Positions 11,109-14,265 are shown, counted from the stretch's first letter. The stretch: DNA of 46,580 nucleotides from Escherichia coli (GCF_003334255.1 NZ_QOWU01000043.1), one strand, 5' to 3'. Numbers and translations: made by a program. Notes: generated by a model not told the origin, from the sequence alone.

Positions 11109-12581
11109 ATGTCCCGAATGGCAGAACAGCAGCTTTATATACATGGTGGTTATACCTCCGCCACCAGCGGTCGCACCTTCGAGACCATTAACCCGGCCAA
11201 CGGTAACGTGCTGGCGACCGTGCAGGCCGCCGGGCGCGAGGATGTCGATCGCGCCGTGAAAAGCGCCCAGCAGGGGCAAAAAATCTGGGCGTCGATGACC
11301 GCCATGGAGCGCTCGCGTATTCTGCGTCGGGCCGTTGATATTCTGCGTGAACGCAATGACGAACTCGCAAAACTGGAAACCCTCGACACCGGAAAAGCAT
11401 ATTCGGAAACCTCAACCGTCGATATCGTTACCGGTGCGGACGTGCTGGAGTACTACGCCGGGCTGATCCCGGCGCTGGAAGGCAGCCAGATCCCGTTGCG
11501 TGAAACGTCCTTTGTGTATACCCGCCGCGAACCGCTGGGCGTAGTGGCAGGGATTGGCGCATGGAACTACCCGATCCAGATTGCCCTGTGGAAATCCGCC
11601 CCGGCGCTGGCGGCAGGCAACGCAATGATTTTCAAACCGAGCGAAGTTACCCCGCTTACCGCGTTAAAGCTGGCTGAAATTTACAGCGAAGCGGGCCTGC
11701 CGGACGGCGTATTTAACGTGTTGCCGGGCGTGGGCGCGGAGACCGGGCAATATCTGACCGAGCATCCGGGCATTGCCAAAGTGTCATTTACCGGCGGTGT
11801 CGCCAGCGGCAAAAAAGTGATGGCTAACTCGGCGGCCTCTTCCCTGAAAGAAGTGACCATGGAACTGGGCGGTAAATCACCGCTGATCGTTTTCGATGAT
11901 GCGGATCTCGATCTCGCCGCCGATATCGCCATGATGGCAAACTTCTTCAGCTCCGGTCAGGTGTGTACCAATGGCACCCGCGTCTTCGTTCCGGCGAAAT
12001 GCAAAGCCGCATTTGAGCAGAAAATTCTGGCGCGCGTTGAGCGCATTCGCGCGGGCGACGTTTTCGATCCGCAAACTAACTTCGGCCCGCTGGTCAGCTT
12101 CCCGCATCGCGATAACGTGCTGCGCTATATCGCCAAAGGCAAAGAGGAAGGCGCGCGCGTACTGTGCGGCGGCGATGTACTGAAAGGCGATGGCTTCGAT
12201 AACGGCGCATGGGTTGCACCGACAGTGTTCACCGATTGCAGCGACGATATGACCATCGTGCGTGAAGAGATCTTCGGGCCAGTGATGTCCATTCTGACCT
12301 ACGAGTCGGAAGACGAAGTCATTCGCCGCGCTAACGATACCGACTACGGCCTGGCGGCGGGCATCGTGACAGCGGACCTGAACCGCGCGCATCGCGTCAT
12401 TCATCAGCTGGAAGCGGGTATTTGCTGGATCAACACCTGGGGCGAATCCCCGGCAGAGATGCCCGTTGGCGGCTACAAACACTCCGGCATTGGTCGCGAG
12501 AACGGCGTGATGACGCTCCAGAGTTACACCCAGGTGAAGTCCATCCAGGTTGAGATGGCTAAATTCCAGTCCATATTCTAA
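11109..12581 (+). CDS. betB: betaine aldehyde dehydrogenase BetB
   Basis: 490-aa ORF with aldehyde dehydrogenase motifs (ELGGKSP, catalytic-Cys region [11 protein letters not shown]). Confidence 0.95.
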
Positions 12582-12594
12582 CCAGGAGGTTTAT

Positions 12595-14265
12595 TTGCAA
12601 TTTGACTACATCATTATTGGTGCCGGCTCAGCCGGCAACGTTCTCGCTACCCGTCTGACTGAAGATCCGAATACCTCCGTGCTGCTGCTTGAAGCGGGCG
12701 GCCCGGACTATCGCTTTGACTTCCGCACCCAGATGCCCGCTGCCCTGGCATTCCCGCTACAGGGTAAACGCTACAACTGGGCCTATGAAACGGAACCTGA
12801 ACCGTTTATGAATAACCGCCGCATGGAGTGCGGACGCGGTAAAGGTCTGGGTGGATCGTCGCTGATCAACGGCATGTGCTACATCCGTGGCAATGCGCTG
12901 GATCTCGATAACTGGGCGCAAGAACCCGGTCTGGAGAACTGGAGCTACCTCGACTGCCTGCCCTACTACCGCAAGGCCGAGACTCGCGATATGGGTGAAA
13001 ACGACTATCACGGCGGTGATGGCCCGGTGAGCGTCACTACCTCCAAACCCGGCGTCAATCCGCTGTTTGAAGCGATGATTGAAGCGGGCGTGCAGGCGGG
13101 CTACCCGCGCACGGACGATCTCAACGGTTATCAGCAGGAAGGTTTTGGTCCGATGGATCGCACCGTCACGCCGCAGGGCCGTCGCGCCAGCACCGCGCGT
13201 GGCTATCTCGATCAGGCCAAATCGCGTCCTAACCTGACCATTCGTACTCACGCTATGACCGATCACATCATTTTTGACGGCAAACGCGCGGTGGGCGTCG
13301 AATGGCTGGAAGGCGACAGCACCATCCCAACCCGCGCAACGGCCAACAAAGAAGTGCTGTTATGTGCAGGCGCGATTGCCTCACCGCAGATCCTGCAACG
13401 CTCCGGCGTCGGCAACGCTGAACTGCTGGCGGAGTTTGATATTCCGCTGGTGCATGAATTACCCGGCGTCGGCGAAAATCTTCAGGATCATCTGGAGATG
13501 TATCTGCAATATGAGTGCAAAGAACCGGTTTCCCTCTACCCTGCCCTGCAGTGGTGGAACCAGCCGAAAATCGGTGCGGAGTGGCTGTTTGGCGGCACTG
13601 GCGTTGGTGCCAGCAACCACTTTGAAGCAGGTGGATTTATTCGCAGCCGTGAGGAATTTGCGTGGCCGAATATTCAGTACCATTTCCTGCCAGTAGCGAT
13701 TAACTATAACGGCTCGAATGCAGTGAAAGAGCACGGTTTCCAGTGCCACGTCGGCTCAATGCGCTCGCCAAGCCGTGGGCATGTGCGGATTAAATCCCGC
13801 GACCCGCACCAGCATCCGGCGATTCTGTTTAACTACATGTCGCACGAGCAGGACTGGCAGGAGTTCCGCGACGCAATTCGCATCACCCGCGAGATCATGC
13901 ATCAACCCGCGCTGGATCAGTATCGTGGCCGCGAAATCAGCCCCGGTGTCGAATGCCAGACGGATGAACAGCTCGATGAGTTCGTGCGTAACCACGCCGA
14001 AACCGCCTTCCATCCGTGCGGTACCTGCAAAATGGGTTACGACGAGATGTCCGTGGTTGACGGCGAAGGCCGCGTACACGGGTTAGAAGGCCTGCGTGTG
14101 GTGGATGCGTCGATTATGCCGCAGATTATCACCGGGAATTTGAACGCCACGACAATTATGATTGGCGAGAAAATAGCGGATATGATTCGTGGACAGGAAG
14201 CGCTGCCGAGGAGCACGGCGGGATATTTTGTGGCAAATGGGATGCCGGTGAGAGCGAAAAAATGA
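12595..14265 (+). CDS. betA: choline dehydrogenase BetA (GMC oxidoreductase)
   Basis: FAD-binding Rossmann motif [11 protein letters not shown] near N-terminus; start assigned to TTG at 12595 preceded by AGGAGG (12585..12590); the ORF track's upstream extension from 12550 overlaps betB and is probably not translated. Confidence 0.9.

Follow-up and report, generated by a model that had tools for sequence, protein, structure and literature searches.

Where translation of betA begins is the question raised by this locus, as the betA reading frame runs back into the preceding gene, betB, and offers two TTG codons as possible initiators. The window (the whole 46,580-nt stretch of Escherichia coli DNA that was analysed) contains the E. 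coli K-12 betT/betI-betB-betA locus, and a 601-nt query across the betB/betA junction was 100% identical to an MG1655 derivative, from whose record the RefSeq gene coordinates were carried to the window (locus position + 9799). It is concluded that betA is translated from UUG at 12595-12597, giving a 556-aa protein (probability about 0.93). Five independent lines of evidence, namely RefSeq annotation, a comparison across 80 species, family-profile boundaries, Shine-Dalgarno energetics, and an in vitro INRI-seq peak, agree in supporting a start at 12595 rather than at 12550, which is the choice that a sequence-only reading had made. The start is already known, being the annotated betA start in NC_000913.3, RefSeq and UniProt, and among Shine-Dalgarno-led UUG starts it is an ordinary one.

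The RefSeq features of the locus are betT (divergent), betI, betB and betA, in that order. By RefSeq mapping, betI occupies 10508-11095, and the RefSeq CDS of betB (betaine-aldehyde dehydrogenase, 490 aa) spans 11109-12581, ending in a TAA at 12579-12581 that was read directly from the sequence. The betA gene, specifying oxygen-dependent choline dehydrogenase (556 aa plus stop, with a computed mass of 61.88 kDa), lies at 12595-14265, as given by the RefSeq CDS and the TIGR01810 match; both genes are on the plus strand, as are the codons, spacer, and Shine-Dalgarno sequence described below. The original bet sequence paper of 1991 reportedly gave a 61.9-kDa BetA, which would agree with the mass computed for the 556-aa form. 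A 13-nt spacer, CCAGGAGGTTTAT (12582-12594, direct reading), separates the betB stop from TTG 12595, exactly the distance claimed beforehand. The junction query matched 5180 of 5426 complete E. coli genomes; the junction was missing from the other 246, and in 10 cases it was plasmid-borne rather than chromosomal. In NZ_OZ501666.1 (3684576-3685953) an IS1B-family element lies inside the query sequence, splitting the match in two so that it spans 1378 bp, and a second 'choline dehydrogenase' feature is annotated at the insertion. Elsewhere in the window, the only Rfam match at the gathering threshold was IS009 (RF02111; 38498-38697, minus strand), a full-length match of 202 bits.

A codon walk showed that the betA frame is closed upstream by a TGA at 12535-12537, and that before the FAD-binding motif it holds just two ATG, GTG or TTG candidates, TTG 12550 (12550-12552, rejected as a start) and TTG 12595. 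The codon at 12550 had been taken for an ATG, a misreading that lends the rival start more strength than is due; its overlap with betB (32 nt) and its lack of a Shine-Dalgarno sequence, the best duplex with the 16S rRNA tail being -3.8 kcal/mol, were described correctly. An ATG does occur at 12555-12557, and is Met483 of BetB, 40 nt from 12595 and out of the betA frame. Directly after TTG 12595 the sequence reads CAA TTT GAC TAC ATC ATT ATT GGT GCC GGC TCA GCC GGC, in which the codons of the FAD-binding glycine motif GAGSAG (residues 9-14 of the translation) occupy 12619-12636, and the next in-frame ATG, at 12733, is past this motif.

The local signals favor the downstream codon. The hexamer AGGAGG, complementary to the anti-Shine-Dalgarno sequence, was read directly at 12584-12589, leaving a 5-nt spacer before the in-frame TTG and so falling within the 4-9 nt expected of UUG starts; it had been reported before the TTG, rightly, but at 12585-12590, where the sequence reads GGAGGT. 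Pairing of the 20 nt upstream with the 3' tail of 16S rRNA gave -11.0 kcal/mol at 12595 versus -3.8 kcal/mol at 12550. The window has 1456 TTG triplets, both strands counted, and pairing as strong as that at 12595 precedes only 3 of them, so the match is better than chance would give. Over a 101-nt region, the Shine-Dalgarno site and the TTG were both unpaired in the centroid fold, and no significant stable RNA structure at the betA start was detected across the same length (z = -1.27). A short, G+C-rich hairpin, GCCGGCTCAGCCGGC (12621-12637), which coincides with the GAGSAG codons, appeared in both the minimum free energy and centroid folds.

Experimental data on initiation come from INRI-seq, in which a synthetic E. 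coli transcriptome is translated in a purified system and retapamulin stalls ribosomes at start codons, each annotated gene being represented by 30 nt of 5' UTR and 51 codons (PMC9825163). The betA start (b0311, NC_000913.3 start 327247, minus strand) was detected in all five replicates, with peaks of 104.8, 89.4, 84.6, 69.7 and 91.3 (PMC9825163 Table S2), and the betA oligonucleotide (PMC9825163 Table S6), which includes TCCAGTCCATATTCTAACCAGGAGGTTTATTTGCAATTTGAC, matches the window from 12565 and carries the same TTG. This TTG and its Shine-Dalgarno sequence are, then, initiation-competent in vitro. Ribosome profiling had been named beforehand as a check on the start, and the in vitro peak at the annotated TTG supplies it in part: the transcript begins 30 nt upstream of the TTG and does not include the 12550 codon, so that it makes no comparison between the two sites, and the in vivo Ribo-RET signal for betA quoted in the same study is zero (PMC9825163), probably because the bet operon is uninduced in that medium. 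No alternative b0311 site is listed in INRI-seq Table S3, from a search that included ATC and ATT (PMC9825163). Among other sources, the supplement of the TRAINSPOTTER N-terminomics study held no N-terminal peptide of BetA, and the supplements of the TetRP start-site paper made no mention of betA or betB.

Current annotation is in accord with the TTG start. Three E. coli genomes were sampled, with identities of 100%, 94.7% and 91.9% over the 601-nt query; in each of them the RefSeq CDS of betA opens at the homologous TTG, separated from betB by 13 nt, and the four junction sequences compared are identical. The comparison with the curated BetA N-terminus (MQFDYIII) that had been suggested as a check came out in favor of the TTG, the 556-aa sequence being identical to UniRef BETA_ECOLI, and an exact-sequence look-up found this protein on at least 1000 contigs. 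A 562-aa BetA is present in many E. coli lineages, including O157:H7. It was considered as the product of another start and rejected as such, as its N-terminus is the same and the six additional residues are C-terminal (...RAKKMSRDVN), which means that the K-12 betA stop (14263-14265) is polymorphic within E. coli.

With each species represented by one genome, a scan recovered 80 loci encoding BetA relatives with 77-98% protein identity, of which one was too near a contig end and 79 were analysed; the six search patterns included MQFDYIII itself, so the set is somewhat biased towards this N-terminus. The codon homologous to 12595 is a potential start in 52 of the 79 loci, as TTG in 33 (34 with the window) and ATG in 19. 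The TTG group comprises Pseudocitrobacter, Enterobacter, Lelliottia, Leclercia, Huaxiibacter, Klebsiella, Raoultella and Citrobacter, and all its loci have AGGAGG or GGGAGG as the Shine-Dalgarno sequence, while the ATG group comprises Trabulsiella, Pluralibacter, Cedecea, Pantoea, Kosakonia, Rosenbergiella, Tatumella and a few Pseudomonas. In the remaining loci (Pseudomonas, Moraxella) an ATG lies one or two codons upstream (MSQEFDYIII and similar). The start position is thus conserved, and the frame upstream of it is closed in many loci. The betIBA region of Pseudocitrobacter vendiensis (locus L004 of the scan, 414-4157), with 92% DNA identity to E. coli and 98% BetA protein identity, was nearer than those of Enterobacter (about 86% DNA identity) or Citrobacter (about 80%), a closeness that may stem either from horizontal transfer of the locus or from the relatedness of the species.

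Protein family boundaries point to the same N-terminus. BetA scored 1036 bits against TIGR01810, the betA equivalog of the GMC oxidoreductases (cut-off 732.1), and 1001 against PRK02106 (cut-off 605). In the 556-aa form, position 1 of TIGR01810 falls at residue 4 and position 4 of PRK02106 at residue 1, and the Rossmann GxGxxG FAD-binding motif directly follows a short first strand, the two together occupying residues 4-14. In the 571-aa translation from 12550 the alignments begin only at residues 19 (TIGR01810) and 17 (PRK02106), leaving the 15-residue extension outside both profiles. The alignment with the closest solved structure, 9lq0 (an oxygen-dependent choline dehydrogenase), begins at the same N-terminal point as the profiles. 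The N-terminus of BetA is MQFDY..., the methionine probably being retained before glutamine.

Were BetA instead to begin at the upstream TTG 12550, it would be a protein of 571 aa and 63.7 kDa with a 15-residue N-terminal extension, encoded in part by the last 32 nt of betB. This codon does open the longest ORF in the betA frame, a TTG at the equivalent position (-45) is found in Escherichia, Pseudocitrobacter and Enterobacter, and the 571-aa form appears in GenBank entries from a few E. coli assemblies (KGM63850.1 plus three more; 5 contigs only by exact-sequence look-up). Such entries show that mis-calls exist, but against the 556-aa form they are rare, and the NCBI pipeline was right in all three genomes sampled, so the earlier comment about frequent errors by automated callers at this start is weakly supported. 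RefSeq makes no use of the codon, its anti-Shine-Dalgarno pairing is weak (-3.8 kcal/mol), and the extension it would add has no counterpart in either family profile. In other species the codon is often missing or out of frame: Klebsiella and Raoultella (L023-L029 and L083) have a betB-betA spacer of 14 rather than 13 nt, CCAGGAGGTCATTT, and as a consequence a stop at -45 closes the upstream betA frame, which offers no alternative start; in two of three Citrobacter amalonaticus loci and in C. sedlakii the TTG has become TCG, a change that is silent in BetB; and in most of the 19 ATG-group species an in-frame stop lies 3-27 nt upstream. On these three counts a conserved start at 12550 is excluded. 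Substitutions within 12550-12581 also follow the betB frame, as where TTC changes to TTT, keeping Phe in BetB while converting Ser to Phe in the putative extension. Initiation at 12550 alone is accordingly considered extremely improbable.

Use of both codons, in which 12595 would give the main, 556-aa product and 12550 a minor isoform of 571 aa, is judged very unlikely, if slightly less so. Nothing positive speaks for it beyond the presence of the upstream TTG in the closest relatives and the precedent of minor in-frame alternative starts in other E. coli genes (PMC9825163). It meets all of the objections just raised against 12550; in addition, ribosomes reading betB through 12550-12581 in the other frame would interfere with 30S binding there, and the retention of the upstream TTG is explained by the coding of Val-Glu (GTT GAG) in betB. 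A start further downstream, at the non-canonical ATC 12610, ATT 12613 or ATT 12616, or at ATG 12733, is the least likely reading, its probability being close to negligible. These codons do occur in frame, but initiation at any of them would truncate or eliminate the first beta-strand and the GxGxxG motif, when both profiles cover the protein from residue 4, and INRI-seq found no alternative betA site even though ATC and ATT were searched (PMC9825163). Downstream starts are in effect refuted by the profile boundaries.

Initiation at UUG 12595 has been demonstrated in vitro. The full-consensus AGGAGG (12584-12589), 5 nt before the UUG, positions the 30S subunit, and the initiator tRNA reads the codon as fMet. 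With the betB stop 13 nt upstream and adjoining the Shine-Dalgarno sequence (TAACCAGGAGG), ribosomes terminating on betB would sit over the betA initiation region, and for this reason the translation of betA is probably coupled to that of betB, as far as can be judged from the layout of the junction. In coupled pairs on a single transcript, stop and start are separated by anything from a few to about 20 nt, a range that includes the 13-nt spacer. As an initiator, UUG is weaker than AUG. A strong Shine-Dalgarno sequence and an open local structure would partly offset this weakness, and the net result may be that the UUG fixes how much BetA is made in relation to BetB.

Within E. coli the junction is nearly invariant. 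A 32-mer covering the Shine-Dalgarno sequence, spacer, TTG and five codons (12581-12612) was found in 5183 of 5184 records and was exact in 5181, while a 60-mer (12566-12625) was exact in 5108, the other 76 records differing at one or two positions. An otherwise identical 60-mer with ATG or GTG in place of the TTG gave no exact match among the 5184 records. A tentative and rather doubtful suggestion is that the TTG, far from being a neutral relic, is maintained by selection because it limits BetA synthesis to a level lower than that of BetB, so that toxic betaine aldehyde would not build up. It is prompted by the persistence of TTG across at least nine genera and by the lack of an ATG or GTG version in the 5184 E. 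coli records, and the ATG found at this codon in other genera shows that the switch is mutationally easy. The conservation of the junction speaks against it, being matched elsewhere in the operon: among the 34 TTG-group sequences its conservation was 0.88-0.91 per column, compared with a mean of 0.845, other windows were equal (0.915 at 12248-12277), and no special constraint was seen at the junction beyond coding and the ribosome-binding site.

The neighboring starts were also inspected. At the betI-betB junction (11093-11111) a TAA is followed by a 13-nt spacer that begins with CC and then the Shine-Dalgarno sequence (CCGAGGAGACGTG), and then by ATG, the same 13-nt layout as at the betB-betA junction. 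A GTG at 11106 lies in frame directly before the annotated betB ATG at 11109, so that the mechanical ORF is 491 aa compared with 490 aa in RefSeq. The annotated betB start was detected by INRI-seq, at 29-52 per replicate, along with a weak extra peak at an in-frame ATG 9 nt downstream, corresponding to Met4 (PMC9825163). The longest ORF for betI begins at ATG 10490, while the RefSeq start is ATG 10508 (MPKLGMQ...). Conservation of MPK[LVK]GMQ in 17 enterobacterial loci, together with an upstream frame that is often closed or startless, supports 10508 as the probable start, although the annotated betI start gave zero INRI-seq signal in all five replicates despite its transcript being in the pool at 84.7 CPM (PMC9825163).

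The correct start defines the true N-terminus of BetA, which is relevant to the design of expression constructs and to the transfer of annotation to relatives, and a few GenBank entries carry a false extension of 15 residues. If the suggestion of selection were true, the combination of a weak start codon and a very strong ribosome-binding site, kept across a clade, could exemplify the tuning of enzyme ratios by start codon, and would do so in a pathway with a toxic intermediate, the betaine aldehyde that BetA produces and BetB clears.

The relationship of this start to known systems can be viewed at several levels. About 88% of annotated E. coli starts are ATG (PMC9825163), and betA belongs with the minority of Shine-Dalgarno-led UUG starts, resembling them in its UUG, its AGGAGG at 5 nt, and its retapamulin-stalled complex; what sets it apart is solely the retention of the TTG across several enterobacterial genera while others have ATG. 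In DNA, protein and TTG start, the betA of the window is the same as K-12 betA (b0311, BETA_ECOLI, NC_000913.3), without any difference. Orthologues in Trabulsiella, Pantoea, Cedecea and Pseudomonas, as well as 9lq0, have an N-terminus within 0-2 residues of M-[QE]-[FY]-D-Y-I-I-I-G-A-G but start with ATG, in contrast to the TTG of E. coli betA. Many Pseudomonas loci (L053-L082) carry a G+C-rich inverted repeat (e.g. CCCGGATCGCAACCGGG) about 20-45 nt before betA, within a longer spacer, an organization different from the tight enterobacterial junction, and compared with E. coli BetA, the Pseudomonas and Moraxella proteins have one or two extra N-terminal residues and are preceded by longer, hairpin-containing spacers. 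The betB-betA junction resembles in its layout those of translationally coupled operons, sharing with them the short distance from stop to start (13 nt) and a Shine-Dalgarno sequence adjoining the stop.
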